A stretch of 64,000 bases of DNA from a candidate division FCPU426 bacterium (GTDB taxonomy: Bacteria; Oederibacteriota; Muellerivitia; Muellerivitales; Muellerivitaceae), in the NCBI GenBank assembly GCA_963738405.1, contig CAVTWJ010000004.1, forward strand, positions 33,047 to 97,046, written 5' to 3'. The notes under the pieces are model-generated. The model was not told the DNA's origin, made no database searches, and saw nothing but the letters and a program-made list of their open reading frames with translations. The translations under genes were made by a program, and so were the position numbers. How positions within the stretch are numbered: the stretch's first letter is position 1; the number at the start of each line of letters is the position of its first letter. This document shows, piece after piece, positions 7,329 to 33,277 of this stretch.

Positions 7329-8582
7329 ATGGCGAAGGAAATCAAGCAGGACATCGTGGTGGGGCTGGATCTGGGGACAACCAAGGTCTGCACCATTATC
7401 GGCGAGCAGGATGAGGAGGGGCAGGTCCACATCATCGGCGTGGGCACGACCCCTTCCACGGGATTGAAGAAGGGGTCGGTGGTGAATATCGAGCAGACCA
7501 TCGCCTCCATCAAGAAATCCGTGGCGGACGCCGAGCGCATGGCGGGGGTGGAAGTGGGAGCGGCCTTCGCGGGCGTAGCCGGGGGCCACATCAAGGGCCT
7601 CAACAGCCGGGGCGTCATCGCCGTGGCCCGCAAGGATAAGGAAATCAGCGAGGACGACCGGGAGCGTGTCATTGAGGCGGCCCAGGCCATCGCCATCCCC
7701 ATGGACCGGGAAATCATCCACGTGATCCCGCAGGAATACATGGTGGACGACCAGGACGGCATCAAGAATCCCGTCGGCATGTCAGGGGTGAGGCTGGAAG
7801 CGGAGGTCCACGTGGTAACGGGAGCGGTCACCAGCGTACAAAACATCGTCCGGAGCGTGGAGCGGGCGGGTCTGCAGGTGGCGGACATTATTCTTCAGCC
7901 CCTGGCTTCGGCGGAAGCCATCCTCTCGGCGGATGAGAAGGAATTGGGGGTGGTGCTGGTCGATATCGGGGGAGGAACCACCGACATCGCGGTCTTCATC
8001 AACGGGGCCCTGTGGCACACGGGCATCATCACCCTGGGCGGCCAGCTGGTCACCAGCGACGTGGCGGTGGGTTTAAGGACACCCAATACGGAAGCCGAAG
8101 CTATCAAGCTCCAGTACGGTTGCGCTTATACCGCTATGGTGAAGGAAGAAGAGGAGATCACGGTTCCTGGGGTAGGAGGACGGGCGGACCGGCGCATGCC
8201 CCGCCGGGTGCTTTCCGAGATCATCGAGGCCCGCATGGAGGAAATTTTCGAGTTGGTGGCCGCGGAGCTGAAAAAGCACGGGTTCGAGGACCGCATCCCG
8301 GCGGGAGCGGTGATTACCGGGGGTTCGGCTTTGATGGAAGGAACCGCTGAGTTGGCGGAGAAGATTCTTCAGCTTCCGGTGCGCATCGGGTCCCCCAAGA
8401 GGGTCGGGGGGCTGACGGATGTGGTTTCCAATCCCAGCTATTCCACGGCGGTGGGGCTGGTGTTGATGGGGTTCCAAACGTTCCACAAGAGCGGAACCAA
8501 GAAGGGGCAGGGTTTTTCGGGCGAGAACGGGATGAAGAGCATCCTGGACCGGATGAAAAAGTGGTTTGGGGATTCTCTTTGA
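7329..8582 (+). CDS. ftsA: Cell division protein FtsA
   Basis: GLDLGTTK, PVGMSGVRLE, DIGGGTTD, TGGSA motifs; C-terminal amphipathic helix (RMKKWFG); AAGGAGG RBS. Confidence 0.98.
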   Translation: MAKEIKQDIVVGLDLGTTKVCTIIGEQDEEGQVHIIGVGTTPSTGLKKGSVVNIEQTIASIKKSVADAERMAGVEVGAAFAGVAGGHIKGLNSRGVIAVARKDKEISEDDRERVIEAAQAIAIPMDREIIHVIPQEYMVDDQDGIKNPVGMSGVRLEAEVHVVTGAVTSVQNIVRSVERAGLQVADIILQPLASAEAILSADEKELGVVLVDIGGGTTDIAVFINGALWHTGIITLGGQLVTSDVAVGLRTPNTEAEAIKLQYGCAYTAMVKEEEEITVPGVGGRADRRMPRRVLSEIIEARMEEIFELVAAELKKHGFEDRIPAGAVITGGSALMEGTAELAEKILQLPVRIGSPKRVGGLTDVVSNPSYSTAVGLVLMGFQTFHKSGTKKGQGFSGENGMKSILDRMKKWFGDSL

Positions 8583-8699
8583 TGCCTTTTCAGTATGAGA
8601 AGTGAGATGTGCAGGGTTGTGTAAAAGAAGCAAGCAGTTCAATGTTGGAGAAGAGTCCAGGGTGGACTGCCATTCGCAGCAAAATTGAGGGGGATTAAG

Positions 8700-9866
8700 A
8701 TGATAGAGTTCGCGGAAGATGATGTGACGCAGTATCTGGCTCACTTGAAGGTTATCGGAGTGGGCGGCGGCGGATGCAACGCCGTCAATAAAATGATGGA
8801 AGCGGGTGTGGAGGGCGTGGAATGCATCGCCGCCAATACCGACTACAAGTCTCTTCGCCGAAGCAAGGCGGGGAAAATTATCCAGCTGGGCAAGACCCTG
8901 ACCAAGGGTTTGGGTTCGGGCGGAAACCCCACGATCGGCAAGGAAGCGGCCATGGAATCCACCGACGAGATCCAGAAAACCCTGGAAGGGGCGGATATGG
9001 TGGTGGTCGCCGCCGGGATGGGCGGGGGCACGGGCACCGGCGCAGCGCCGGTGGTGGCTGAAATCGCCAAGAAATTGGGGATTCTGACCGTCGCCGTCGT
9101 CAGCCGTCCGTTCGAGCACGAGGGTCCGGTCCGCAAGGCCCAGGCCGAGGACGGGCTTCGGGCCATGCTGCCCCATGTGGACGCCATCGTGGTGATCCCC
9201 AATGAGCGCATCAACCTGGTTTGCGAGCAGGATGTGGACCTGATGAGCGCCTTCGCCAAGGTGGACGAGGTGCTGGTGCAGGCCATCCAGGGCATCTCGG
9301 TGATTATCCATTCCGAGGGCGTGATCAACCGCGACTTCGCCGACGTGAAGCGCATCCTCACCGCCAAGGGAAAGGTGCTGATGGGTATGGGCGCCGCCAC
9401 CGGCGAGGATAGGGCCTTGAAGGCGGTCCAAAAGGCCGTTCACAGTCCCCTTCTAGAGGACGTGGATATCGCGGGCGCCAGCGCGGTGCTGGTATTGGTT
9501 ACCGCGGGGGCCAATTTCAGCCTGAACGAATTCAACCAGATCAACGGGTTTCTACAAAAGGCCGCAAGGCCGGGCGCGGAAATCATTCCAGGGATCGTGC
9601 GCGACGAGAACCTGAAGGACGGCCTCAGGGTCACCATCATCGCCACCGGTTTTGAGGCCGCCAAGGAAGACGCGGCCCTGGAGACGGTTTTGAACCTGGG
9701 CGAATTTTTGACCCCGGAATTCAAGACCGCCAAGGGAGCCACCGCTGCCTCCCACGCGGCGGAGGACCAGGAACCCGAAACGGAATTCAAGACGGCCGAC
9801 GGCAAGTACGAGATTCCGGCCTACTTGAGGCGCCGTTTGGCGGGAAAGCCGTTCCATAACAATTAA
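8700..9866 (+). CDS. ftsZ: Cell division protein FtsZ
   Basis: VIGVGGGGCNA, GMGGGTGTG, DFADV, VTIIATGF motifs; C-terminal peptide EIPAYLRR. Confidence 0.98.
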   Translation: MIEFAEDDVTQYLAHLKVIGVGGGGCNAVNKMMEAGVEGVECIAANTDYKSLRRSKAGKIIQLGKTLTKGLGSGGNPTIGKEAAMESTDEIQKTLEGADMVVVAAGMGGGTGTGAAPVVAEIAKKLGILTVAVVSRPFEHEGPVRKAQAEDGLRAMLPHVDAIVVIPNERINLVCEQDVDLMSAFAKVDEVLVQAIQGISVIIHSEGVINRDFADVKRILTAKGKVLMGMGAATGEDRALKAVQKAVHSPLLEDVDIAGASAVLVLVTAGANFSLNEFNQINGFLQKAARPGAEIIPGIVRDENLKDGLRVTIIATGFEAAKEDAALETVLNLGEFLTPEFKTAKGATAASHAAEDQEPETEFKTADGKYEIPAYLRRRLAGKPFHNN

Positions 9867-9892
9867 CCAATAGCAGGGGAAAGAAAGGGAAT

Positions 9893-11176
9893 ATGCGACG
9901 CAAGTGGAGCCGGAGAACAGTTATGAAGTTGGGTGTTTTGAGTTTGGTTTTCAGTTTATGGTGCGCTGGAAGTTTCGGCGCTTCGGCCATAACCCCGACC
10001 CCGATTTCGGTTCTGGCCCCAACCGTCCCAGCTTCGCCCGCTGGGGTAACGGCCGCGCCCAAAGCGGTGGGAACCGTAACGGCCGCCGCTGAGGATGAGG
10101 GCTTTACGGTGCTTTGCTACCACCGTTTTGTGGGTAAACCCGATTCACATTCGGGGCCTGTTTCCGCGAACCAGGCTCCGGTGACGGAGAAATCCGCAAA
10201 GGCCGCCCTTTTTTCACTTTATAACCTGCCGTTGGAGGAATTTCGCTGGGAAATGAAGTATCTCAAGGATCACGGGATAACGCCTATTTCGATCGAGCAG
10301 TTGAAGGCCTACTGGTTTGACGGGAAACCCCTCCCCGCCAAGGCGGTGCTTTTGACGTTCGATGACGGTTTCCGAAGTATTTACGAAATAGCCTATCCCG
10401 TGGTCAAGAGGTACCGCTATCCGGCGGTCCTCTTTGCCTATACGGATTTCATCAAGTGGCAAAAGGGCTCCCTTCGCTACGATGACATCCTAACGATGCA
10501 GAAGGACAACTGGACAATTGAAAGCCACACCAAAAGCCATTTGCATATGGGAAAGGACGAAGAGAATTATTCGGCGAAGGATTTTGACAGTCTTTTGCAA
10601 GAAGAGTTGGGCACGCCCGTGTCCTTTATCAAGGATCATTTTGATTACACAACCAATGTTTTGGCTTACCCCTACGGCGATTACAACGACGATATTGCGG
10701 CCAAGACCCAGGCCATGGGATACAAACTGGCTTTTGGGGTCTGTCCCGGACCCAATGACCGGACCGTGCCGCCCCTGAAACTGCACCGGAACCTGATGCT
10801 TTACCCCGTCAAACACGAATCCTTCAAGGAAATATTCGAATATAAGGTCCTTCATCTATCGGATATGTTCCCGGAGGACGGCCAATGGATTAGCGACCAC
10901 AAGCCCGCGATCAAGGTAAAGATTTTGGACAACGTGGTTCCCGCCTCCGTAAGCCTGGGGTTTGACAGCCATCCCGCCGACTTTAAATACGACCCCGCCA
11001 CGAAGCTCTTGACCCACCTATCGGGGGAAAAACTTTCCTCCGGGGGCCATATCCTGACGGTCAAGGCCGAGGACGCTCAGGGACAAAAGTTAACCTATAG
11101 CTGGTTTTTCCGGATCAAGCATTACCCTAAGCCCAATCCGGCCAAGGAAGAAACCCATGAAGCTGACGTCTATTAA
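9893..11176 (+). CDS. Secreted polysaccharide deacetylase (CE4/NodB-like) with C-terminal Ig-like domain
   Basis: Signal peptide; LCYH, LTFDDG, SHTKSH, AYPYG motifs. Confidence 0.85.
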   Translation: MRRKWSRRTVMKLGVLSLVFSLWCAGSFGASAITPTPISVLAPTVPASPAGVTAAPKAVGTVTAAAEDEGFTVLCYHRFVGKPDSHSGPVSANQAPVTEKSAKAALFSLYNLPLEEFRWEMKYLKDHGITPISIEQLKAYWFDGKPLPAKAVLLTFDDGFRSIYEIAYPVVKRYRYPAVLFAYTDFIKWQKGSLRYDDILTMQKDNWTIESHTKSHLHMGKDEENYSAKDFDSLLQEELGTPVSFIKDHFDYTTNVLAYPYGDYNDDIAAKTQAMGYKLAFGVCPGPNDRTVPPLKLHRNLMLYPVKHESFKEIFEYKVLHLSDMFPEDGQWISDHKPAIKVKILDNVVPASVSLGFDSHPADFKYDPATKLLTHLSGEKLSSGGHILTVKAEDAQGQKLTYSWFFRIKHYPKPNPAKEETHEADVY

Positions 11177-12527: not shown

Positions 12528-13335
12528 AACCCTTCTTATCTCGCGGGGCGGGGTAAGCTTTATCACCTTTCCCGGATTAGGGGATTCAGCCCAATTAACC
12601 CAGGCCGTTTCCACACGAGTGGGCGGGGTGAGCCGTGGGAAGATGAAAAGCCTCAATTTGAGCTACAAGGTGGGGGATGATACGCTCCGGGTTGAGGAAA
12701 ACCGGACCCTCCTCCTGAAGGCCCTGGGCATTCAAGGGGTTCCCGCAATGGTAAACCAGGTGCATGGAGACGGAATCCGGCGGGTGGTGAAGGGAGACCG
12801 ACTGCCCATGGACGGGGTGCTGGGGGAAGGCGATGCCCTGGTGAGCGATGTTCCCAGGGTTCCTTTGATGATCCTGGTGGCCGACTGTCTGCCGATACTT
12901 TTCCATGATCCCGTTCACCGAGCCATCGGATTAGCCCACGCCGGATGGCGGGGAACGGTGAACCATATCGGGGCGAAGACCCTTTTGAGAATGCAGGAAG
13001 AATTCGGCACCCAACCCGCGGATGTCAAAGCGGCCCTGGGCCCCGCCATCGGAAGCTGCTGCTACGAGGTCGGACGGGACGTCGCGGATCGCTTTCAAGA
13101 GGTCTTTCCTTGGGCCGGGGAGGTTTTGGCCGGCACGGAAGCGGACAGATATAAGCTCAACCTGGAAGAAGCCAACGCCCGCCAGCTTTTGGAAGTCGGG
13201 GTTGTTCCCGAGAATCTATTCCGATCGGGTTTGTGCACAATCAAAAGAAATGATTTGTTTTTTTCGTATCGGGCGGAAGCCACACCTGAGCGCCCCACGG
13301 GACGGGTTGGGGCCTTGATCATGCTGGCGGGTTAA
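12502..13335 (+). CDS. pgeF: Peptidoglycan editing factor PgeF (YfiH family)
   Basis: STRVGG, QVHG, ADCLP, HAGWRG, GPAIG..CYEVG, FFSYR motifs; TTG start after GGAGG at 12491. Confidence 0.93.
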   Translation: MIPDKPSAETLLISRGGVSFITFPGLGDSAQLTQAVSTRVGGVSRGKMKSLNLSYKVGDDTLRVEENRTLLLKALGIQGVPAMVNQVHGDGIRRVVKGDRLPMDGVLGEGDALVSDVPRVPLMILVADCLPILFHDPVHRAIGLAHAGWRGTVNHIGAKTLLRMQEEFGTQPADVKAALGPAIGSCCYEVGRDVADRFQEVFPWAGEVLAGTEADRYKLNLEEANARQLLEVGVVPENLFRSGLCTIKRNDLFFSYRAEATPERPTGRVGALIMLAG

Positions 13336-13346
13336 AGGAGACGACC

Positions 13347-13544
13347 ATGGGCTGGTGGAAAGATTTCTGGACGGGTCTCAAAAAGGGGAAGAAAGCCCGG
13401 GTTGATAAGCGGAAAGAACAAAGCCGCAGAAAAGGCGACCGCCGCTGGATGGGCCCGGAAGGTGAAAAACCCAGGGCCAAAAAGGAGCCCCGGCGCAAGA
13501 AGGAACGGCGCAAGAAGGCCCGGCGAAAACCCCCAAAGGCCTAA
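13347..13544 (+). CDS. Small Lys/Arg-rich protein with N-terminal aromatic amphipathic segment
   Basis: AAGGAG RBS; MGWWKDFWTGL followed by a polybasic tail. Confidence 0.55.
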   Translation: MGWWKDFWTGLKKGKKARVDKRKEQSRRKGDRRWMGPEGEKPRAKKEPRRKKERRKKARRKPPKA

Positions 13545-13592
13545 TAACCCCCCTCCCCGGCCAGACATAGCCTGTGATTGGGGTGGTTAACT

Positions 13593-13792
13593 ATTTCTGT
13601 TAAACCGACCCTCAAAACTGTTAAACAAGTTCCGAAAACTGTTAAACAACACCAAAAAACTATTAAACTGCGCCAAAATTTCTGTTAAACAACCTCTAAA
13701 AACTGTTAAACTAGGCCTGATTTCTGTTAAACAGGCCTTTTTATTGGGTAAACACCGTTCTTTTATCTGTTAAAATTTAATTTCTATTAAAC
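13593..13792 (+). repeat. Phased direct-repeat array (iteron/centromere-like), core CTGTTAAAC, 21-22 bp period
   Basis: Cores start at 13597, 13618, 13639, 13660 (CTATTAAAC), 13682, 13703, 13724, 13745 (degenerate), 13767 (CTGTTAAAA) and 13784 (CTATTAAAC); each preceded by an A/T tract. Confidence 0.93.
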
Positions 13793-13814
13793 AAACCCCC
13801 TTCCTGTTCATCGC

Positions 13815-15455
13815 ATGGAGGATATATTGGAAAAAAGCAACCTTAAGTCCCTGGCATGGCTGGATAAACTGTCCGCCTTCGCCGCTGAACGGGAAAAGAA
13901 CCCCGACATCCCGCATGCCGAGCTGGCCAAGGCTCTGGGCCACGATAAGGCCATGGTGTCTTTTCTGAGGTCCCTCAACAGTTGTTTTGATCCCGCCGCC
14001 GTGGAAAGGGTCCGGCAGGCCGCCCAAGGGCCCCACCCCTTTACCCTTTCCTTTAATAGCGCCTTGGAACTGGCCAAGCTGAACGGCAAGGTCCCCGACC
14101 TGCCGGGGGCGTTTCAGGACGCCCTGGAAGTGGTCCTTGCCCGCCATCTGGCCAAAAGGCATATCAAGAACCTGGTGGATTGGATTGCCAGCGGCAAACC
14201 GGCCAAGGATTTTGACCCTAAAAAGATCAAGGGAAATAAGCAGGATTCCGACGAACCCGAAACCGACGAGGATGAGGGTGATGAGGAAGAACCCAAAGAG
14301 CAAACGGAAGATAAAAAGCAAAAGAAAGGGAAGGGTATCAGAAAGGCCCTTAAACAGCTTCAAAAAGCAGGCGCTAAAGGCCTGTTTGTCGGCCTCAAAT
14401 CCATGGCCGGTATGATCCACAGATACGTTCATGAAGCCGCCAAGACTACGGCGGGCTATTTTTGCCCCCTCCACTCACGTTCCAGCCGAAATCATGATTC
14501 CTCTACCAGGCCAAACCTCTTTAGGTTCCTGGGCCATTGGGGGCTCTACTGGTTTTGCGTCTTTTTTGCCTATAGCGGTATCGTCGGCCTCCTCAGTTAC
14601 ATCGGGCACTTTATCCCCTTCGTGGGCCCCTGGATCGACAGCGCCTGGGCGTTCCTGGTCCACCTGCTGATCCGCCTGCCCTTTTGGCTCTTGCGCCAGA
14701 TATTTGCCAAGCCCTGGCTGGTTTTCATCCTTGGCGTGGCTTTGGTTTGGTGGATTCACAAGGAATTCAAGGCCGGGTTATTGGCCACCCTTGTCGTCGC
14801 CGCCCTGTTGGCGGCGGGATGGATTTTTAGGGGAGTATGGGGGCCCTATCTGTCATCGATTGTTTCAATTTCATCACCGAAGACCGTGGAAGTACCCGTC
14901 TCCACAAAGACCTCACAACCAGCCGTCCCAGCGGTTTCGGCGATCATTTCAAAGATCGAGCCGAAGCTTACTGCAAAAAAGCCTAAAAAGCCCCTGTCTC
15001 CCGTAGCCTTGGCAAAGGGAGATAACTCGGGGGTCTTAGTTATTCCACCCGAGTCCCAGCCCAGGGTTCAGCAAGAATCGTTGTTCGTAAATGGCTTCAT
15101 TGGTGATCTTTTCGGGCCCAGCTACCACGACCTTCAGGGTTGGATGGGGAATCTGCAAAGCGAAATCACGCCAGGCTATTGGGACCAGTTTGTTTACGAA
15201 AATTACCCGCCCGCCAAGATGCAGGAAATCCAAGACAAGAAATATTTGGTTTTCTTCAAACTCTCAGATCCCGTGAAATGCGTGAGGGCGGACGTGTTAT
15301 TGGACGAGTTTCAGGTGGAAGGGGTGGTGACCACCAAAAGCGACCTGCATTATCAGGGGGAGGTGGTTTCCACCGTGCCCGTGACCGTAATTGTGGATGT
15401 GCGCCAGGGCCTGAAGGGCCTGGAAGTTTGCAAGGTTGATAGAGTCCGACCATGA
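13815..15455 (+). CDS. Membrane-anchored ParB/KorB-like HTH protein with putative extracytoplasmic C-terminal domain
   Basis: PHAELAKALGHDKAMVSFLRSL...LSFNSALELAKL resembles the ParB/Spo0J HTH region; acidic/basic linker; several hydrophobic helices at about aa 235-345; C-terminal alpha/beta domain. Confidence 0.7.
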   Translation: MEDILEKSNLKSLAWLDKLSAFAAEREKNPDIPHAELAKALGHDKAMVSFLRSLNSCFDPAAVERVRQAAQGPHPFTLSFNSALELAKLNGKVPDLPGAFQDALEVVLARHLAKRHIKNLVDWIASGKPAKDFDPKKIKGNKQDSDEPETDEDEGDEEEPKEQTEDKKQKKGKGIRKALKQLQKAGAKGLFVGLKSMAGMIHRYVHEAAKTTAGYFCPLHSRSSRNHDSSTRPNLFRFLGHWGLYWFCVFFAYSGIVGLLSYIGHFIPFVGPWIDSAWAFLVHLLIRLPFWLLRQIFAKPWLVFILGVALVWWIHKEFKAGLLATLVVAALLAAGWIFRGVWGPYLSSIVSISSPKTVEVPVSTKTSQPAVPAVSAIISKIEPKLTAKKPKKPLSPVALAKGDNSGVLVIPPESQPRVQQESLFVNGFIGDLFGPSYHDLQGWMGNLQSEITPGYWDQFVYENYPPAKMQEIQDKKYLVFFKLSDPVKCVRADVLLDEFQVEGVVTTKSDLHYQGEVVSTVPVTVIVDVRQGLKGLEVCKVDRVRP

Positions 15456-15530: not shown

Positions 15531-15560
15531 TTGTCCACGATGGGGAGCCATCGTGGACAA
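15531..15560. repeat. Palindromic hairpin repeat, copy 1
   Basis: TTGTCCACGATGG-GGAG-CCATCGTGGACAA, perfect stem. Confidence 0.92.
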
Positions 15561-15668
15561 AGAAAAACGCTTGTAATACTGTTTTGATACGGTTGGCCTT
15601 GTCCTGTTTTTATGACAGAAATTGAGTCGGTGGCCAACTCTTTAGATTAATTATTATGAGGCTGATGG

Positions 15669-16541
15669 ATGACCGAAGCACCTTTGGCGGAAAAAATTGA
15701 ATTCGTCCGGTCCGAGGACCTTGCGGGCATTGAAATATTGCGGGCCGACAATACCAAGCATTGTTTCCGGTGGTTTCACCAGACCTACTCCGTCAATACG
15801 CCTTTGAATTACCAAGCCCCCGATTACCACCAATTCAAGTATCGCGGGAAAAGCTTCACGGGGTTTCCGGGAGAGACCATGATGCTCGAACCCGGGGAAA
15901 TCCACAGCGCCACTTACTTATCGAACCCGGTTACTTTTCGGGTCATCATGATTCCACCCGTAATCCTCGAACAATGCGCCTTGGAATTGGACGTCCGGGG
16001 TTCCAGGCCCCATTTAAAAACAGCGCTCTCGGACGATTCGGTTCTCTTTAAGGCCTTCCGGAATCTTCACGCCAGCATCGAAACGGATTGCACGGCCTTG
16101 GAACGTCAGTCCCGTTTTGTCTATTGCGTCAGGCATCTATTGAGGGCGGCGGCGGAAATAATTCCGAAACCCCCTCCCGCCGAAAGAAGTTTAAAGAAGG
16201 TTAAGAAGGCGGTGGAATTCTTGAAAACCCATTGGGCCGAAAATATTACACTCGACCAACTCGTCAAGGTCGTGGGTCTTAACCGATTTTATCTCTCCCG
16301 GGTTTTCACCCGGGAAATGGGAATTCCTCCGCATGCCTTCCAGATTCAATTGCGGATTGCCCGGGTCCGGGAATTCTTGAAAATGGGCGTTCCTATTTCC
16401 GAAATCGCCCTCGCTGCGGGTTTTACCGACCAATCCCATATGGACCGCCATTTCAAGAAAATTACGGGGACAACGCCCGCCCGTTATGCCGGACTAAGAT
16501 TGAAGACAAAGACCAGGGCAATAACGTCCTATAGTTTGTAA
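15669..16541 (+). CDS. AraC-family transcriptional regulator
   Basis: N-terminal cupin-like domain (PGEIHS); C-terminal double HTH (LSRVF..MGIPPH; IALAAGFTDQSHMDRHFKK..GTTP). Confidence 0.93.
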   Translation: MTEAPLAEKIEFVRSEDLAGIEILRADNTKHCFRWFHQTYSVNTPLNYQAPDYHQFKYRGKSFTGFPGETMMLEPGEIHSATYLSNPVTFRVIMIPPVILEQCALELDVRGSRPHLKTALSDDSVLFKAFRNLHASIETDCTALERQSRFVYCVRHLLRAAAEIIPKPPPAERSLKKVKKAVEFLKTHWAENITLDQLVKVVGLNRFYLSRVFTREMGIPPHAFQIQLRIARVREFLKMGVPISEIALAAGFTDQSHMDRHFKKITGTTPARYAGLRLKTKTRAITSYSL

Positions 16542-16603
16542 ATCCTTCTCCCTAGACTTCCAATGTCTCCAGTTAAAACGGAATTTTTGAGTGAGGGGTT
16601 ATC

Positions 16604-19339
16604 ATGAAGAATCAGTCCTTGTTGATTACGATCGGGCTTTTGTTTTTTGCAGCTTGCTTCTATATTTCCTGCGGAAGCGGCAGTCCCACGGCGCCGGCCC
16701 CCACCCCCGTTCCCGTGCCCACCGATACCCCTTGCGGTTATCCGGGCAATACCTGCACAGTGACCTCCACCTTTACCTCGACCGATACGCCTACCTCGAC
16801 CCATACGGCCACGACCACTTATTCGCCCACCCAAACCAATACCCCGACCCAAACCTTCACCTGGACGGTCACGAAAACCCCGACGGACACCTTTACGTCA
16901 ACTTCCACCTTTACGATAACGGATACACCGACAATAACGGATACACCCACCCACACCCACACCTACACCTTCACCTTCAGCCCCACGGAAACCAGGACTT
17001 CGACGGAAACCTTCACACCGTCCGATACCCCTACGATTACGGATACCCCCACCGTATCCAACACGCCCACCGTGACCAATACCCTGACCAGTACTACCAC
17101 GCCCACTGTCACGAACACGGTGACCTGCACGAACACCCCGACCAACACTTCCCAATATTCCTCTACCTATACACCCACGATCACTCGCACGGCCACGATC
17201 ACCTTAAGTCCCACCAATACCTCCACGTCCACGCCAGTGGGTATTTTCGTCAGCGGTTCGGTGACCTACACGGGGGCGGGAACCGTCTCGTCGGCCAACC
17301 CCATCGTGATTATCGCCTCCAATCCCCTGGCAACGAACGGGATGCCCGAAACGGTTATCACCACAAACGGAGGCTCTTATTCTTTCGCGGTGACCGGTGG
17401 GAATAATTCCATCGTCTGCTGGTACTCGAACAAAGCGCCGCTCAATTGCCTGACGAATGGCGGGGCCCCAGAGCAGGGGAATTACATGGGCTGGTACAAC
17501 GGGGGCGCCCAGCCAGTCACGATCAATATCACTTCCAGTACTTCCAACATCAACGTCACGATTGGTTCGGGCAGCGCCCTCCAGGGGGTTGCCGGGCCGG
17601 TGAGTTACCTGGGATTGAACAGCGTCGATAACAACCACCCGGTGATCGTGGAACTCTTCAAGGACAGCGGCTACAGCACCCTGGACCAGTCGATGGGCCC
17701 GGGCGAGGAAGAGTTCAGCTGTGCCCATTCGACTTACAACTTCGCCTCCAGCAACAACGGGTCGACCGAATACCTGCTGGCTTTCCAGGACAACGCGGGT
17801 ACGGGCCGCGTGAACGCCGCCAGTCAGGTTCCCGGCGGGGACCCGATGGTTTTGGCCGGATCCGTGGTGATTGGTACCTCAACGACCAAGAATATCGCTT
17901 TTCCCACTTCCACGCCGACCATGACGGTCACCTCCACCCCGATCCCCGCCCCCTACGTCTTCAAGGGAACGATCCATTACACCGGCGCAAAAAGCACTGC
18001 GGGCCAATACCTATTGATGATGGCCACCACCTGCATCAGCTGCGGCGGCAACGATATGGTCACTTGGTCCACCCCGGGAACCTCGAGCGCGGTTTCCTAT
18101 ACCCTCAACCTGCCCTCCACCGGCAGTTACGTGGTCATGGGCATGTTGTCCAATGATCCGGTCATGAACGGGCCGCCGCCGGTGGGCGCGCCTTACGGAT
18201 TCTACGGAACAGGCACTGTTTGTTTGGGAGGAACACCCACGACCCTGGCCGTGAACGGGCCTACCACGCAGACTGCCAACATGTCTTTTGGGGACAGCTG
18301 CGAACTGAATGGTGTTTCGGGGACCATCAGCTACACCGGCGCGGGCTCAGTGGGCAGTAATGGTAACTCGCTGTATGTGACGGCTTATACGGATTCAAGC
18401 TACTCGACTCAGATTTCGGGACCCGGAAACAACTCCGTGACGGTGAATGGGGGCACTTATAACGTGATCAACACCGGCGGCGCCCCCACTACCGTCTATC
18501 TCCAGGCTTATTACGGGTCCGACAATAACAACGCCCCGGCAACCTGTGACGCGGTGACCAATTTAGGCCCGGTGGCCTTCAACACCACCACGACCACCAA
18601 AAATATCACGCTTTCCGACGCCTTCCTCTACAACTGCACGAACACCCTCTCGGGCACCGTCAATTGGACAGGGGCCGGCACGGTCAACACGTCCGATCCC
18701 ATCGTCGTGCATGCCGTCCTTTGCCCCAGCGGGGATTGCAACAACCAAACGAACTACTCTTGCGCAGTGACCCAAAACGGCGGGAACTATTTCGTGGGTT
18801 TTCCCGCAGCGGGATCCGTTTACGTTTCTGAGGAATACGTGGCCACGGGAAGGATTTGGAACAATTGGGATTACAACATCGGAAGCTACGCCGAAAATGC
18901 CGATGGAACTTGTTCCATCGAGACCGGCAATAATGGAAACCCCGTCATCGTCAGCGGAGCCGCCGTTTCAAACCTGAGTTTCGGTTCCAGTTGTGGACAA
19001 CTCCAGGGTTATACCGGAACCGTGACCTATAACGGTTCCAAGGGCGCCCCGACTTGCAATGGAAACCCCGGACGCCAAATTTGGGTCTCGGCCACGTATG
19101 GAAACAGTAAAAACGAGTTTTCCTATTGGGATACTAGCGTATGCAATAACGGTGACACCTATAAGATCATCTATGGAACAACGAGCGCGAGTCTATATTT
19201 GAGGGTCTGGTTTGATGACCAGGGTACGGGTGACCACCAGCCGCAGACCGGCGAGTCTGGGACCGTAGTGGGTCCCTACGTTACGAGCACCAACCCAACC
19301 TCTATCAACATTTCCTTTGATGATTCCCAAACCTGGTAA
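16604..19339 (+). CDS. Large secreted/lipoprotein with Thr-Pro stalk and repeated Cys-containing Ig-like modules
   Basis: Signal peptide ending YISC; about 180-aa Thr/Pro tract; recurring (S)G(T/S)VxYTG module starts. Confidence 0.85.
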   Translation: MKNQSLLITIGLLFFAACFYISCGSGSPTAPAPTPVPVPTDTPCGYPGNTCTVTSTFTSTDTPTSTHTATTTYSPTQTNTPTQTFTWTVTKTPTDTFTSTSTFTITDTPTITDTPTHTHTYTFTFSPTETRTSTETFTPSDTPTITDTPTVSNTPTVTNTLTSTTTPTVTNTVTCTNTPTNTSQYSSTYTPTITRTATITLSPTNTSTSTPVGIFVSGSVTYTGAGTVSSANPIVIIASNPLATNGMPETVITTNGGSYSFAVTGGNNSIVCWYSNKAPLNCLTNGGAPEQGNYMGWYNGGAQPVTINITSSTSNINVTIGSGSALQGVAGPVSYLGLNSVDNNHPVIVELFKDSGYSTLDQSMGPGEEEFSCAHSTYNFASSNNGSTEYLLAFQDNAGTGRVNAASQVPGGDPMVLAGSVVIGTSTTKNIAFPTSTPTMTVTSTPIPAPYVFKGTIHYTGAKSTAGQYLLMMATTCISCGGNDMVTWSTPGTSSAVSYTLNLPSTGSYVVMGMLSNDPVMNGPPPVGAPYGFYGTGTVCLGGTPTTLAVNGPTTQTANMSFGDSCELNGVSGTISYTGAGSVGSNGNSLYVTAYTDSSYSTQISGPGNNSVTVNGGTYNVINTGGAPTTVYLQAYYGSDNNNAPATCDAVTNLGPVAFNTTTTTKNITLSDAFLYNCTNTLSGTVNWTGAGTVNTSDPIVVHAVLCPSGDCNNQTNYSCAVTQNGGNYFVGFPAAGSVYVSEEYVATGRIWNNWDYNIGSYAENADGTCSIETGNNGNPVIVSGAAVSNLSFGSSCGQLQGYTGTVTYNGSKGAPTCNGNPGRQIWVSATYGNSKNEFSYWDTSVCNNGDTYKIIYGTTSASLYLRVWFDDQGTGDHQPQTGESGTVVGPYVTSTNPTSINISFDDSQTW

Positions 19340-19350
19340 AAGCTTTTGGC

Positions 19351-19388
19351 AAAAAGGCCCGTCCCTTCATTGGGACGGGCCTTTTTTT
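19351..19388. terminator. Bidirectional intrinsic terminator
   Basis: AAAAAGGCCCGTCCC-TTCATT-GGGACGGGCCTTTTTTT just after the stop at 19339. Confidence 0.92.
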
Positions 19389-19444
19389 ATTTGGAGTGGG
19401 CGTCAAGGAACCAGTCGCCGGAAAATATCATGGTTGTATATAGG

Positions 19445-19453
19445 TGATATACT
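19445..19453 (+). promoter_or_regulatory. Candidate extended -10 promoter
   Basis: TG-A-TATACT upstream of the hairpin cluster and low-GC genes; no good -35 seen. Confidence 0.35.
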
Positions 19454-19644
19454 GGCCGCATTGAAAAACCCGGCAGTTGAAACGGGATATTAACGGCAGG
19501 GCGTTATTGAACGGGATGGTTATCGATGGAACCTGAAGTCCAATAATAAAAAAACCGGGTCTGGTCCCACGCTCTCCAGCGTGGAACAGGGCTCAATTCA
19601 CCGCAGAATTGAGCAGGGATTAACCATTATTAGTACGAGTTAGG

Positions 19645-19672
19645 TGTTCACGATGGGGACCCGTCGTGGACA
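19645..19672. repeat. Palindromic hairpin repeat, copy 2
   Basis: TGTTCACGATGG-GGAC-CCGTCGTGGACA, with two T.G wobbles. Confidence 0.88.
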
Positions 19673-19712
19673 GGTAACATGGATTGGGAAACATTGAAAG
19701 AGGATGTGAAGT

Positions 19713-20117
19713 TTGGCAAAAAATGAAAAAATCCAAATATTATTATTCCCTTTTCTGTTCCTTGGGTTAATGATTATTTTTCCATATATAAGTTTTGGAT
19801 TTAATAAATGGCTTGGGAGAAATTTAGGGAATTTTTTATTTTTTCTACCGCAATATGTATTTCCATATGACGGGTATTTCAGAAGTGGCCCGTTTGATGA
19901 AACTGCCCACTTAAGTCTTCATCCGCTTGGTTTGCCAGGATGGATTGCATCGTTGATTCATTGGACGATTGTCATTTTTATTTATTATTGGCTTACTCGA
20001 AAATTATCCTTTGGAAAATCACTTCTAATGTTTTGCTTTTTGGCTATTTCATCATTAGTAATTGTCTATTTTTCATTGGGGGTTTTTGGATGGAATTTCA
20101 GCATTGATGGACCATAA
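19713..20117 (+). CDS. Low-GC hypothetical membrane protein
   Basis: 134 aa, about 3 hydrophobic helices; TTG start after GAGG; AT-rich codon use. Confidence 0.7.
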   Translation: MAKNEKIQILLFPFLFLGLMIIFPYISFGFNKWLGRNLGNFLFFLPQYVFPYDGYFRSGPFDETAHLSLHPLGLPGWIASLIHWTIVIFIYYWLTRKLSFGKSLLMFCFLAISSLVIVYFSLGVFGWNFSIDGP

Positions 20118-20130
20118 AAAAGGAATTCTC

Positions 20131-20160
20131 TTGTCCACGACGGGGACCCGTCGTGGACAA
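20131..20160. repeat. Palindromic hairpin repeat, copy 3
   Basis: TTGTCCACGACGG-GGAC-CCGTCGTGGACAA, perfect stem. Confidence 0.93.
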
Positions 20161-20202
20161 AGAAAAAAGGCGTAAAGTGTTATCGGCAATAGGAGATCGA
20201 AA

Positions 20203-20538
20203 ATGGATCGCAAAATAATCGCCGAAGTTATATTCGCATTTTTAGGAGTATGGATGATCGCCCTCCCTTCATTCTTTTTAAAGTTCCTCGCAAAGGGGGC
20301 ACAGTTTAATTATGAAAATTTAAAATCAAATTTAGATAGGATTAAAAGGGAAGGGCCGGCAAATCTGAACGAAAAATTAGCGACGAAATTTGGTCCCAAC
20401 ATCTTTCAAAAAATCTCGATGAATAAGGATGTTTATAAACCCCCGACGGAAACACAAAAGTGGTTAATGAGATCATTGGGGATATTATTCGTTTGCATAT
20501 CTCTTGGCGTTTTATTCAATCTGATTGGGGTTAGATGA
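20203..20538 (+). CDS. Low-GC hypothetical membrane protein (2 TM)
   Basis: AGGAG RBS; hydrophobic N- and C-terminal helices. Confidence 0.75.
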   Translation: MDRKIIAEVIFAFLGVWMIALPSFFLKFLAKGAQFNYENLKSNLDRIKREGPANLNEKLATKFGPNIFQKISMNKDVYKPPTETQKWLMRSLGILFVCISLGVLFNLIGVR

Positions 20539-20602
20539 AACATTGTTAATTTTTCTCTCCAGTTTCTTAACCGATTTGAGGACCGTTTGGTTGAAGCTTG
20601 TT

Positions 20603-20630
20603 TGTCCACGACGGGGACCCATCGTGGACA
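20603..20630. repeat. Palindromic hairpin repeat, copy 4
   Basis: TGTCCACGACGG-GGAC-CCATCGTGGACA, one mismatch. Confidence 0.9.
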
Positions 20631-20687
20631 GAAAAATAAAGTGTAAGTATTTCATTTGGACGGTATTACGGGAAAAAGGATTAGAAT

Positions 20688-21221
20688 TTGGAAACTAAAA
20701 CGGAAATAAATCCAAACGAATTTAGAACACTTTACCGTCCCCGTTTTGCTGATTGGCTCATTGCTTGTCTTTTTTTCTTAACTTTTGGTTTGGGACTTCC
20801 ATCTATGTTGGTTGAAAAAAGTTTGGATGTTTGGGGAAAGAACATTTTATCTTTGGATTCGATTGAAAGGTTTTTTGGGTGCGTTGTAGTAATCGGAATG
20901 GAAATAATTTTATTGAAAGAATGTTTAAAATCTTGGCTTTCTGAAGTTAGTGTTAATTCTATGAGACTAAAATTAAAAATTCTTTCTTTTGAAAAAATAA
21001 TTGAATGGAAAACTCTTCATTCTATTTCTCTTTCGCCCAATAGCTGGGGAACAGTTGATTTGTATTTGTTTTTTCCAAATAAAAAGAAAATTAGGTTTTG
21101 GTCGGCCTTTGGTCCTGCAAGTAGATTTATCTACCAAGGTATAAAAGAATTCAGACCTGATCTGATTGATGAACTGAAAAAGCAGGGGAAAATGCATGAG
21201 TATAAAGGTGTATTTATTTAA
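20688..21221 (+). CDS. Low-GC hypothetical membrane protein (2 TM plus possible PH-like soluble domain)
   Basis: 177 aa; two hydrophobic helices then a beta-rich tail with IEWKTLHSI; TTG start after AAGGA. Confidence 0.7.
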   Translation: METKTEINPNEFRTLYRPRFADWLIACLFFLTFGLGLPSMLVEKSLDVWGKNILSLDSIERFFGCVVVIGMEIILLKECLKSWLSEVSVNSMRLKLKILSFEKIIEWKTLHSISLSPNSWGTVDLYLFFPNKKKIRFWSAFGPASRFIYQGIKEFRPDLIDELKKQGKMHEYKGVFI

Positions 21222-21235
21222 ACCAGATACTTAAC

Positions 21236-21283
21236 CTGTCCACGACGGGGACCCGTCGTGGACAGTCAGTACCACTGACTGTC
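21236..21283. repeat. Palindromic hairpin repeat copy 5 with overlapping second palindrome
   Basis: CTGTCCACGACGG-GGAC-CCGTCGTGGACAG (21236-21265) overlaps GACAGTCAGT-ACC-ACTGACTGTC (21261-21283). Confidence 0.92.
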
Positions 21284-21433
21284 TTATTCGAAAATGTTTC
21301 CCCGGAACTTTCTAGCTTTCTCAAAAAATTTTAGGGGAATGATAAACCTGTACTTACCTGGTAAAGTTACCCCCTGTCCGCAAAAGGAACCCGTTGTGAA
21401 CAAAGAAAATGCCGATAAGGAGCCTTCCAAACC

Positions 21434-21757
21434 ATGACTTCGCGCCCGCCCCTTTTGATTGTGCTCTGCTTCCTAGGACTCGTTGGTTGTTTTCTGAACA
21501 TGATGATGGTTTTATCCCCGCCTGTGCGCGAGATCGCGCCCTGGTTTCCAGGCTACCTATCGGCAGCGACGGCCCTAGCGGCCGCCTGCCTGGGGGGACT
21601 GTGGTTTCTCAAACGTTGGGCCCTATGGGGATATACCTTTTATTTTCTGGCCCAGCAATCCGTCTTTCTTTTGCTTCATCGCTGGGATGCCCATGCCTTG
21701 ATCCTTCCCTTGGCCGTGACGGCTACGGCCTGGGCCTATTCAAAGAATATGAAGTGA
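21434..21757 (+). CDS. Small hypothetical membrane protein (about 4 TM)
   Basis: TAAGGAG RBS; strongly hydrophobic 107 aa. Confidence 0.75.
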   Translation: MTSRPPLLIVLCFLGLVGCFLNMMMVLSPPVREIAPWFPGYLSAATALAAACLGGLWFLKRWALWGYTFYFLAQQSVFLLLHRWDAHALILPLAVTATAWAYSKNMK

Positions 21758-31395: not shown

Positions 31396-33277
31396 TCGAA
31401 TGGGAAGGGCATCAATTGGGCTTCTTCTTTTTTGGGTGCCCCTGACCTTCTATTCCCGCAGTGCGGACGGCTTCGTACTGTCCAAAGAATGGGTTGCTCT
31501 GGGTGCCGGGATTTTGCTGGTGGGGTTGGCCCTTTCCCGTATCCCAAGCCTTTTGCGAAATCCATTGGTTGTTATTTCGGGTCTCTTTCTGCTGTGGATG
31601 CTGGGAGATGGATTACTCACTGTGTCTGATTCCACATCTGTGTGGGTCGGTTCCGCCTATCTTTGGGTCATTTTCCTTACCTTTATTGCGGTGGTTTTGA
31701 TCGCTGGGCGGGGATTTACCTACGAAAAAATGCTTCATCTAGCCCTAGCGGCAGGGGTTTTCACGGCGGCCTATGGCTTGGCACAGGCATTGGGGGCCGA
31801 TACCCATAATTGGGACACTCATTTCGAACGCCGGGCCTTTGCCACGCTGGGTAACCCCGATTATCTGGCCGGTTACTTGGTTGCTCTCCTTCCCATGTCG
31901 TTGATTCTTACCCTTCGATCCTCCGGTCAAAGATGGTGGTTCGGTTTTAGGGCCATCACCCTTCTATTATTCGCCGGGCTTCTCGTAACACGGGTTCGAG
32001 GTTCCTTATTGGCTCTAGGGCTTTCCCTGTTAGTTCTGGTCTTGGGGCTTTGGATGCCCTGGGGCAAAACACTTGCCGCTAAAAATAAGAAAACCCTCGG
32101 GATTGCCTTCGCACTGTTGTTAGCGGGTGGGGCGGCTTATTGGTTCCGTTACGGGGGCTTGAATGCTTTCGACATGGGGCAGGTTTCGGTTCAACAGCGC
32201 CTTCAGACCTACCAGGTGGGGATGGAAATGCTGAAGGACCACCCCCTCACCGGGATCGGCCTGGGCCAACTGGGACGGGATTATCCTCTCTACCAATGGA
32301 GGCCCTATACCCAAGCCGAATGGCCTGCCCATCCCCTGACCCTGACGGAACATCTCCATAATGAGTTTTTGCAGTTCGCTGTGGAAGGCGGATGGATCGG
32401 ATTGGGGTTGTATCTGCTGGTTCTGTTGGCCTTTGCCCGACAGACCTTCCAGCTTTTTGGAAATCCAACCACCTCCTCCGCCTCTAAAGAATTAATGTTG
32501 GGAATCGTGGCTTCGCTGGTTGCTCTGTTGGGGCAGGCTTTGACCAATTTTCCCTTTCAAGTGATCCCAACGGGAGTACTTTTGGGATTGTTCTTTGCGG
32601 CGCCAGTGGCATTAGCGCCAAGGGCAATAGAACCCCAAAGGTTTCGCGTGGGTCGAGTCTCAATGGCGGTATTAGGCTTGGTTCTATTGGCATTGGGGGC
32701 CTGGGGGGCCAAGAACATGGCGGCCTCCATCGCTTTAAGGGACACCGTGGGTGAAACCAACCTGGGGAACGCGGCCAAGGCCGGTGCCTATGCCGATCGG
32801 TTAGCGGGTTTGGCCCCAGGCGACCCTAAGGCTTGGGACGCGGTGGCCAAGGCTAGGGAATTGAACAAGCAATGGGACGGGGCAATGGAATCCTACGCCC
32901 GGGAAACAGCGCTCAACCCTAACGTGGTGGAAGCCTATTACGCCATGGCTCAAGACCGGATCATGCAGGGGCGTTTGGATGAAGCCCTGGCCCTTTGCCA
33001 AAAATGTTTAGCGGTGGCGCCTAATTATTCGTCGGTCGTGTGGCTGGAAGGCGTTTGCTATTTCAAGTTGAACCGATATGCCGAGGCCACACAGGAATTT
33101 GAGCAGTTCATTCCCTATGCACCCATGGAAGAATCACTCTATGTAAATTTGGGGGTTTGTTACGTAAAGTCGGCCCGTAAGGCCGACGCAGTGGCGGCTT
33201 GGAAAAAGGCTTATTCCCTCAACCCGCAGGACGCCCAAGTGGTCCTTTATCTAAAATCGGTGGGTGTGAAGATTTAA
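31388..33277 (+). CDS. O-antigen ligase / O-oligosaccharyltransferase-like membrane protein with C-terminal TPRs
   Basis: ATLGNPDYLAGY, TRVRG, HPLTGIGLG, HLHNEFLQ (Wzy_C-like); TPR-like repeats after about aa 460. Confidence 0.85.
   Translation: MVDRMGRASIGLLLFWVPLTFYSRSADGFVLSKEWVALGAGILLVGLALSRIPSLLRNPLVVISGLFLLWMLGDGLLTVSDSTSVWVGSAYLWVIFLTFIAVVLIAGRGFTYEKMLHLALAAGVFTAAYGLAQALGADTHNWDTHFERRAFATLGNPDYLAGYLVALLPMSLILTLRSSGQRWWFGFRAITLLLFAGLLVTRVRGSLLALGLSLLVLVLGLWMPWGKTLAAKNKKTLGIAFALLLAGGAAYWFRYGGLNAFDMGQVSVQQRLQTYQVGMEMLKDHPLTGIGLGQLGRDYPLYQWRPYTQAEWPAHPLTLTEHLHNEFLQFAVEGGWIGLGLYLLVLLAFARQTFQLFGNPTTSSASKELMLGIVASLVALLGQALTNFPFQVIPTGVLLGLFFAAPVALAPRAIEPQRFRVGRVSMAVLGLVLLALGAWGAKNMAASIALRDTVGETNLGNAAKAGAYADRLAGLAPGDPKAWDAVAKARELNKQWDGAMESYARETALNPNVVEAYYAMAQDRIMQGRLDEALALCQKCLAVAPNYSSVVWLEGVCYFKLNRYAEATQEFEQFIPYAPMEESLYVNLGVCYVKSARKADAVAAWKKAYSLNPQDAQVVLYLKSVGVKI

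Follow-up and report, generated by a model that had tools for sequence, protein, structure and literature searches.

Arrays of gene cassettes bounded by a conserved 28-bp site in a candidate division FCPU426 bacterium, with probable exchange in the center of the site

The window array and its 28-bp site

This analysis concerns a stretch of 64,000 nucleotides (the window) from a candidate division FCPU426 bacterium, positions 33,047 to 97,046 of contig CAVTWJ010000004.1 in assembly GCA_963738405.1, and an array of small genes in it that are separated by copies of a 28-bp, nearly palindromic sequence, here called the site. The source genome, G000, is a 3.18-Mb assembly of 23 contigs, in which the window is G000:C4:33047-97046; coordinates such as 19645 are window positions, C-numbers are contigs, and L-numbers are extracted loci (e.g., G004 L131). 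With up to 3 mismatches, the sequence TGTCCACGAYGG-GGAC-CCRTCGTGGACA occurs five times in the window (15532, 19645, 20132, 20603, and 21237; Table 1), with 0 mismatches in the copy at 15532 and 1 (TGTTCAC) in that at 19645, and the number expected by chance is 0.00 (100 dinucleotide-preserving shuffles). The last four copies follow each other at start-to-start distances of 487, 471, and 634 bp, and each interval is occupied by a single open reading frame (ORF) on the + strand, of 134, 111, and 177 amino acids, respectively. GC content is 0.29-0.39 over 19600-21249, compared with 0.50-0.62 on either side. The three proteins are mutually unrelated (best blastp E value, 0.33), carry two or three hydrophobic segments resembling transmembrane (TM) helices in a Kyte-Doolittle scan, and have no match in Pfam; that of cassette 3 found only itself among 5.77 billion proteins.

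An earlier reading made from the letters alone (the sequence-only reading) had described four hairpin repeats with these intervals, each interval holding one co-oriented, AT-rich, unrelated small membrane-protein gene, and our pattern search and ORF analysis agree with it on both points. It had overlooked two copies, the full site at 15532 and a decayed one immediately upstream of the conserved 107-amino-acid gene (21434) and the OGG gene. Its statement that integrases and transposases are absent holds for the families searched, as PF00589, Y1_Tnp, resolvase, and IS110 have no match anywhere on contig C4.

TABLE 1 Sites, cassettes, and neighboring features of the window array
Feature	Position	Strand	Remarks
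CTGTTAAAC repeat array and 546-aa HTH/4-TM gene	13552..15455	+	Left part of the ~8-kb variable segment from pgeF (ends 13335) to the 107-aa gene (21434)
Fifth full site	15532..15559	+	Center GGGGAGCC; directly 3' of the 546-aa ParB-like membrane protein gene
Inter-site segment, 15532 to 19645	15560..19644	+	Three features, listed in the next three rows
AraC-type regulator gene	15669-16541		In segment 15560..19644
911-aa T/P-rich secreted protein gene	16604-19339		In segment 15560..19644
Terminator	19351-19386		In segment 15560..19644
Site 1	19645..19672	+	TGTTCACGATGG GGAC CCGTCGTGGACA; upstream boundary of cassette 1
Cassette 1 ORF	19713..20117	+	134 aa; GC 0.33; 3 TM-like segments; Pfam, none
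Site 2	20132..20159	+	Perfect palindrome except central GA; -16.3 kcal/mol as single-stranded DNA
Cassette 2 ORF	20203..20538	+	111 aa; GC 0.37; 2 TM-like segments; Pfam, none
Site 3	20603..20630	+	C10/A19 noncomplementary
Cassette 3 ORF	20688..21221	+	177 aa; GC 0.32; 2 TM-like segments
Site 4	21237..21264	+	Downstream boundary of cassette 3
Decayed site TGTCCGCAAAAGGAACCCGTTGTGAACA	21375..21402	+	7 mismatches; nhmmer E 0.48; right arm mostly retained, left arm lost, nonfolding

The site consists of inverted arms, TGTCCACGACG and CGTCGTGGACA, around the asymmetric center GGGACC, in an 11-6-11 layout, and in perfect sites the central GA is the sole asymmetry. Across 113 sites, the left arm and center positions 11 to 18 (GGGGACCC) are near invariant, and the variation falls in the right arm, at positions 19 (G76/A28/T9), 20 (T92/G13/C6/A2), 21 (C90/A21/T2), and 22 (G96/T12/A5), with no compensating changes at positions 7 to 10. 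A second arm type (CCGGATTGGACA or CCGCATTGGACA) recurs across many loci and genera. The sequence-only reading took the hairpin fold to be the key feature, and this part of it is not supported: perfect sites fold at -16.3 kcal/mol, while a site with the common variant arm CCGGATTGGACA reaches only -3.9 kcal/mol (z, -0.44), no better than shuffled sequence. Together with the uncompensated changes, this indicates that selection acts on the sequence, as with a duplex site bound by a protein, rather than on the hairpin. The flanks beyond the 28 bp are not conserved. We found no U-tract after the sites, which precede A-rich sequence, and no window site scores in an intrinsic terminator test, the only terminator-like match in 19300-21500 being that at 19351-19386.

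We asked whether the type of right arm (A, GTCGTGGACA; B, GGATTGGACA) marks the ends of arrays and found no rule, because B arms are often terminal (C6, C16, and C23) yet also stand first or internally (C2, C4, C11, and C6). Two sites (G000:C23:~104809-104869 and G000:C12:~86318-86398) are split at the center by a GC-rich hairpin insertion of 34 to 36 nt, in the order TGTCCGCGACGGG, CCCTGTAGC...GCTGCAGGGC, GGGGACCCGTATTGGACA; related GCGCAAGC/CTCGCAAG hairpins adjoin other sites.

Arrays, cassette turnover, and junctions within the site across the lineage

We derived a profile from these copies and ran it with nhmmer over the whole of G000 (threshold, E < 1e-3). The census gives 46 sites at 18 loci in 3.2 Mb, which form 10 arrays of 2 to 8 sites and 8 singletons, and within each array all sites lie on one strand; in the near-complete genome G004, arrays reach at least 14 sites in 10.6 kb. 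The ORF upstream of a site is co-oriented with it in 42 of 46 cases and the ORF downstream in 38 of 45, and some of the opposed calls are spurious ORFs lying opposite genuine toxin-antitoxin genes. Sites begin at a median of 18 nt after the stop codon of the upstream ORF, and 38 of the 91 flanking ORFs fall under the 10th GC percentile of the genome. Pfam searches with 84 ORFs around the arrays returned mostly proteins of no family, along with toxin-antitoxin pairs (PemK, PIN/VapB, DUF433 plus DUF5615, and RHH/PIN), the HflX GTPase, a CAAX protease, and a glyoxalase-like protein. The cargo, including the three membrane proteins of the window, may have an accessory, niche- or defense-related role. 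This clustering of co-oriented sites beside low-GC genes and toxin-antitoxin pairs, as the genome-wide count and the GC comparison show it, agrees with the sequence-only reading in favoring a cassette array over scattered repetitive extragenic palindromes (REPs).

Coding-strand bias is very strong on many contigs of G000 (e.g., 9% or 92% of the coding length on the + strand), and site orientation tracks the local coding strand, contig C6 being an exception to the contig-wide bias. The gene preceding the fifth site belongs to a family of about 10 helix-turn-helix (HTH)/TM proteins in G000 with weak matches to ParB_N and HTH_ParB, whose window member is preceded by about 10 CTGTTAAAC repeats. 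Paralogues are found at G000:C5:686-2257, C14:60064-61683, C23:8188-10269, and C6:8844-10133, among others; at least three have a 28-bp site directly 3', and two more lie just upstream of arrays. We considered these ParB-like membrane proteins with their CTGTTAAAC arrays as the enzyme and read them as cargo, as they lack a recombinase domain.

Within the phylum, the 28-mer (up to 3 mismatches) is found in 21 of the 41 genomes. In G000's own family (f1) it is present in 19 of the 24 other genomes and in 14 genera, and the one genome of the sister family (f2) also carries it; in the other families of the phylum it was found in none of the 15 genomes, and a reversed-pattern control gave 0 in every genome. 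A looser pattern adds variant-arm sites in G012 and G009 and stays at control level in G019, G022, and G010. Exact copies in the public genome collection come from metagenome-assembled genomes (MAGs) only, one of them a Candidatus Firestonebacteria, and the viral contigs had no exact copy. Even in the low-copy genomes G025 and G006, the site lies within small cassette arrays with half-sites. The 28-mer was considered as the single chromosomal dif and rejected, these two genomes carrying arrays and no lone site; the true dif was not located.

Comparison of relatives shows that cassettes come and go. In three genomes of the same genus (G001, G002, and G003), the locus of the window array reads pgeF-(TPR gene)-107-amino-acid gene-OGG and is free of sites, and the corresponding place in G000 holds some 8 kb of additional DNA that ends in the array; the window cassettes are thus missing at the same locus in all three, a gain or loss of the kind that the sequence-only reading had proposed to look for. 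The segment 15560..19644, which is possibly a single large cassette, is likewise not conserved in the same-genus genomes. Single cassettes also stand between core genes; an example is the arrangement hemB-site-251-amino-acid gene (GC 0.36)-site-hemL, which is found in G000 only. None of the 26 hemB-hemL loci of relatives has a site scoring more than 5 bits, and hemL lies directly 3' of hemB in at least 10 of them. The gene hflX has sites on both sides in G000 as well as in G004 and lies within cassette arrays in the two genera, next to cassettes that are not the same. It is also duplicated in G000 (C4:2223-3539 and C11:82000-83316), where the copies are 94% identical, and both are 91-93% identical to the G004 copy (L128:7147-8466), far over the genome background.

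That background is low, as DNA is only 67-70% identical even within the genus, and the HemB proteins of G000 and G004 share 74% identity. Eight cassette pairs are nevertheless 91-100% identical in differing contexts: a Phd/PIN pair at G000 C6:5317-6098 and in G004 L131 (99.7%, 782 bp); G004 L125 and L134, two arrays of one genome (100%, 1276 bp); L128 and L009 (100%, 1020 bp); L133 and L022 (99.6%); L130 and L024 (98.2%); L125 and L133 (91%); G001 L158 and G004 L127 (96.2%, 1675 bp); and G001 L157 and G000 C23 (94.3%). The matched cassettes are embedded in DNA that shows no relationship from the sites outward. In the site on the downstream side, identity spans the left arm and the center and ends at positions 18-19, and the right arms differ, in all 6 informative pairs; of the remaining pairs, one shows no difference anywhere and one extends past the end of the locus. 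In the site on the upstream side, both members have the same right arm, including the rare variants TTCGTGAACA and GCATTGGACA, and the left arm differs in all 3 informative pairs (at position 1, at position 9, and at positions 7 and 11), the junction being masked by an insertion sequence (IS) or an intron in 2 further pairs. What is exchanged is therefore a right arm, the gene or genes that follow it, and a left arm, with a crossover between about position 10 and position 19 of the 28-mer. Half-sites, in which the left arm and center are followed by a break, stand at cassette borders in G025, G004, G006, and G000. Identical cassettes in different arrays and genomes, with the switch inside the 28-mer, correspond to the reordering with junctions in the hairpin that the sequence-only reading had named as a check.

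Among public reads, only three soil runs contain about 5% of the words of the stretch, in contigs of 150-250 bp, many of which match only 36-38 nt of a site. A single joint among them, 20149 to 21245, has a 20-nt side, and the repeat itself accounts for it.

The site is also a target of other mobile elements. A 2.0-kb group II intron is present in at least 9 copies of 99.7-100% identity, three of them in L154 (G001:C5:70000-89999) at 7994-10010, 12563-14579, and 17662-19671, with others in L155, L157-L161, and L033. It scores 60.9 bits with the Rfam family group-II-D1D4-4 and 43.4 bits with Intron_gpII, and it encodes a 529-amino-acid protein with RVT_1 and GIIM domains. In the extracted loci, each of the 10 distinct 5' ends is found exactly 2 nt (TC) 3' of a 28-bp site, with the center inverted in 3 of the 10, and the intron homes on the 28-bp palindrome. 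This resembles class C introns, which make use of DNA hairpins and have attC sites or terminators as their targets. An IS110-family element with a 358-amino-acid transposase (PF02371 and PF01548) is present in G001 in two copies of 99.6% identity (L154:15585-16977 and L161:1839-3231), each of which abuts or overlaps a 28-bp site, in the manner of those IS1111/IS110 elements that target attC or REP sequences.

Proposed mechanism, candidate enzyme, and alternatives

We consider it probable that the window array is one of many mobile-cassette arrays in this lineage, with exchange in the center of the 28-bp duplex site; that the reaction is enzymatic and site specific, and not driven by homology, we hold with somewhat more confidence. 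A cassette starts with the right arm of a site, continues with a short leader and one gene or two paired genes, and ends with the left arm of the site that follows. In a conservative, site-specific reaction with the strands exchanged at the center, it would be excised as a circle with one site; the circle could then insert at any other site, and co-oriented arrays would grow at many chromosomal places. The 11-6-11 geometry and a conservation that is seen in the sequence and not in the structure fit a tyrosine recombinase.

As the acting enzyme we put forward, as plausible rather than established, the Xer-like tyrosine recombinase G000:C12:40126-41160, which would work in trans. It is the only Xer-like gene in G000, and an orthologue is found once per genome in all 24 other f1 genomes (60-73% identity) and in f2 (52%); in other families, the Xer-like matches are only about 30% identical and mostly two per genome. 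Its neighborhood, hydrolase-(HNH)-recombinase-aminotransferase, is conserved, and R170, K194, H263, R266, H289, and Y298 are invariant in 6 orthologues. The NCBIfam scores are 157 bits for XerC, 155 for XerD, and 136 for XerA, all under the equivalog cutoffs. With 345 amino acids, the protein is closer in size to XerH (354-362 amino acids) than to XerC/D (298 amino acids), as given in the part of PMC5357621 on these recombinases. The same source describes dif as two 11-bp arms and a 6- to 8-bp center of strand exchange, with near-inverted arms in single-recombinase systems such as XerA and XerH (PMC5357621). Near-identical arms, as found here, are expected when one protein binds both.

Other recombinase genes were also considered. 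No integron integrase exceeds the TIGR02249 cutoff in any of 31 family genomes (best score, 84.5 versus 265 bits), which, with a 28-bp site and a central crossover, bears out the earlier view of the array as a non-integron one. RAYT genes, of the family NF047646, number three in G000 and lie at least 50 kb from any site. They were not found in 7 of 24 family genomes (G006, G009, G015, G017, G020, G021, and G023), among which G020 and G021 hold about 30 to 50 sites, so that the HUH/RAYT-like enzyme suggested in the sequence-only reading is not supported. Serine recombinases (PF00239) have matches, of mixed types, in only 11 of 24 family genomes and none in G000 (46 sites), G003, G005, G008 (about 36 sites), or G018. 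A phage-type integrase on C9 (367 amino acids) was rejected, as it is multicopy, has a putative tRNA and an excisionase-like gene for neighbors, and is also found in G029 and G033, both free of sites. The enzymes of IS110 elements and group II introns were set aside too, G000 having no IS110 match and its one intron-type reverse transcriptase lying far from sites. Two GIY-YIG genes were likewise discarded. One, on C9, is Ssn-like and flanked by its own GTCATTGCGAGG-type hairpins, not by the 28-mer; the other, on C21, is syntenic, of the housekeeping kind, and present in all 41 genomes, with or without sites, and its operon is followed by a site in only 2 of 12 loci viewed. The published SRM pattern (PMC11893778) matches 0 of the 46 sites. 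The small gene on C9 (G000:C9:12130-12465, L110:1444-1779) stands between inverted GTCATTGCGAGGAGC hairpins, whose 12-mer has 36 copies genome-wide (up to 1 mismatch). A row of three tyrosine recombinase genes at the end of a contig (G000:C22:214000-217716) has a GC content of 0.69-0.75, compared with 0.52 for the genome, and represents a foreign "recombinase trio" element or else contamination from binning.

Several points speak against Xer-mediated exchange in the center of the site. The Xer-like gene lies at least 40 kb from any site, and no recombinase adjoins an array; the sequence-only reading had placed the enzyme in trans, which agrees, and had also looked to a recombinase or RAYT gene flanked by the repeat, which G000 does not show. 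The gene is also found in G019, G022, and G010, which are without a convincing site, and, as every genome of the family has it, its distribution follows phylogeny and proves nothing. Read as 13-2-13 around a central GA, the palindrome suits the site type of serine recombinases at least equally well. The inner sequence is GACG-GGGACC-CGTC here, versus ATAA-center-TTAT in known dif sites such as those of Acinetobacter and Escherichia coli (PMC11705084, in its treatment of these sites). The G000 C6/L131 pair shows differences in the downstream left arm, at position 10 and at position -3, which a strict central crossover does not predict, and in older duplicates (the PemK toxin-antitoxin pair, 86%, and hflX, 94%) homology ends 35-60 nt short of the sites. 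The empty hemB-hemL loci are free of sites, so that the first cassette to enter them requires a secondary site or a different route. Finally, the presence of the intron beside the palindrome in both orientations is a hint that it is occasionally read as a single-strand hairpin.

Exchange within a 28-bp repeat is also obtainable by homologous recombination or gene conversion, and the 28-mer could be a REP- or NTS-like repeat with another main role (a target of a protein or nuclease, or an mRNA 3' hairpin) across which homologous recombination or transformation swaps the cassettes, as is thought to happen with dRS3/NTS clusters and "minimal mobile elements" in Neisseria. The resemblance extends to size and setting, as NTS hairpins of about 28-30 nt occur in hundreds of copies and cluster around genes (PMC11893778, in the part describing them). 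Junctions inside the repeat are also expected from homologous exchange, the median of 18 nt after the stop codon is the place of a 3' hairpin, and the additional left-arm differences of the C6/L131 pair, the older duplicates whose homology ends short of the sites, and the site-free hemB-hemL loci all suit this explanation. We nevertheless judge it unlikely. A length of 28 bp is marginal for RecA-driven exchange, and the junctions, with a switch between the arms in all 6 informative cases downstream and all 3 upstream, do not scatter into the flanks; half-sites also break at the center. The strict co-orientation rests on a 2-base asymmetry that homology alone would not maintain, and the same sequence persists in at least 14 genera without maintenance of the fold. 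For the other roles proposed, the lack of the SRM pattern, the different hairpins around the Ssn-like gene on C9, the missing U-tract, and the failure of window sites as terminators are all unfavorable.

A mechanism working on single-stranded DNA, in which the folded palindrome is processed by an HUH enzyme (RAYT or IS200-like), an Ssn-type GIY-YIG nuclease, or an integron-like integrase, is improbable in our view. It could draw on the strong folding of perfect sites as single strands (-16 kcal/mol; z, about -6 to -8), on the position of the group II intron 2 nt past the palindrome in 10 of 10 cases with the center in either orientation, and on the site orientation, which tracks the biased coding, and probably the replication, strand. 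The enzymes named do not follow the sites: RAYT was not found in the genomes listed above and its genes are not beside sites, no integron integrase passes the cutoff, and the C21 GIY-YIG gene is a housekeeping one in 41 of 41 genomes, whether they have sites or not. Variant-arm sites, which do not fold, are common and conserved across genera, and the crossover maps to what would be the loop of the hairpin, not its foot, which is where attC sites, REPs, and IS200 ends have it. A serine recombinase, possibly on an element left unassembled in these MAGs, would bind 13-bp half-sites around a polarity-setting central GA. The central GA is indeed the sole asymmetry of perfect sites, which have the 13-2-13 layout; 12-4-12 or 13-2-13 matches the sites of resolvases, invertases, and large serine integrases, and the junctions map to the center. 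With PF00239 unmatched in five site-bearing genomes and its types mixed elsewhere, we hold this to be very improbable. Of the enzymes considered, the Xer-like tyrosine recombinase is the one left.

Relation to known systems and significance

Integrons are the textbook route by which bacteria stockpile and reshuffle single genes, and, to our knowledge, the only other proposed cassette system is that of the Xer-site modules of Acinetobacter plasmids. The likeness of the present arrays to integrons and clusters of attC sites lacking integrases (CALIN) is considerable: both are co-oriented, mostly single-gene, low-GC arrays of cassettes of unknown function and toxin-antitoxin pairs, with one site between neighboring genes, just 3' of the stop codon. 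Several arrays have no adjacent integrase, the same cassette occurs in different arrays and hosts, and the sites attract a group II intron and an IS110-family element, which are habits known from attC. The differences concern the machinery. No integron integrase passes the cutoff, we saw no attI/Pc platform, and cassettes are inserted at many places (18 loci in 3.2 Mb). Sites of attC type are 57-141 bp long, with R''/L''/L'/R' boxes (RYYYAAC...GTTRRRY), extrahelical bases, and a structure conserved over sequence, while the 28-bp sites have neither such boxes nor bulged bases (their outer heptamers are TGTCCAC and GTGGACA), include perfect stems, and conserve the sequence and not the fold. In integrons the crossover is terminal in the site (G/TT in the R' box), and here it falls at the center of the palindrome. 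We think it probable that these arrays behave like integrons while being independent of the integron integrase and of attC sites.

Also among the closest parallels are Xer-site cassettes and Xer-exploiting integrative mobile elements (IMEX) (PMC6449649, PMC12907356). In the pdif/xrs modules of Acinetobacter, genes that include toxin-antitoxin pairs are flanked by 28-bp arm-center-arm sites, a host recombinase is proposed to act in trans, and modules are shared between replicons; the flanking sites are mostly inverted and/or of different centers, and excision is given as not seen in the relevant part of that paper (PMC11705084). Here, in contrast, the sites are direct repeats with a near-invariant center, and direct repeats with one center form an excisable configuration. 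The arrays are also chromosomal, reach at least 14 sites, and belong to an uncultured lineage, and the arms are near identical and unlike any dif consensus. The layout of dif sites is present (11-6-11, with central junctions), as is a host Xer-like enzyme with an intact predicted R-K-H-R-H/W-Y active site; the sequence of the site is not dif-like.

The likeness to the dRS3/NTS-Ssn repeats of Neisseria is one of appearance only, both being short, oriented palindromes of about 28-30 nt around variable genes (PMC11893778, as far as its description of the repeats goes). The sites of G000 lack the SRM pattern, no ssn gene is flanked by the 28-mer, copies number in the tens and not the hundreds, and cassette junctions lie within the site. 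As in REP/RAYT systems, the palindromes are short, GC rich, and intergenic, and the genome has a RAYT-type gene; the presence of RAYT does not, however, track that of sites, which are clustered, linked to genes, and conserved in sequence across genera. REPs are usually species-specific.

We found no published description of such arrays in the literature searched. With direct repeats, an identical center, arrays, cassettes shared between genera, and junctions within the site, they show the natural signature expected of a non-integron cassette system. That they represent a second, integron-independent gene-capture system, evolved in this bacterial order, in which the host's single Xer-type chromosome recombinase shuffles one-gene circles at lox/dif-like sites, is a more tentative proposal than the choice of enzyme on which it builds. 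If it is true, a recombinase with a housekeeping role also shuffles cassettes throughout the genome. With a compact 28-bp site and one clear candidate enzyme, the system could explain the movement of accessory and toxin-antitoxin genes in this phylum, and, if the Xer-like enzyme is confirmed, the two would make a new and simple pair of site and recombinase.

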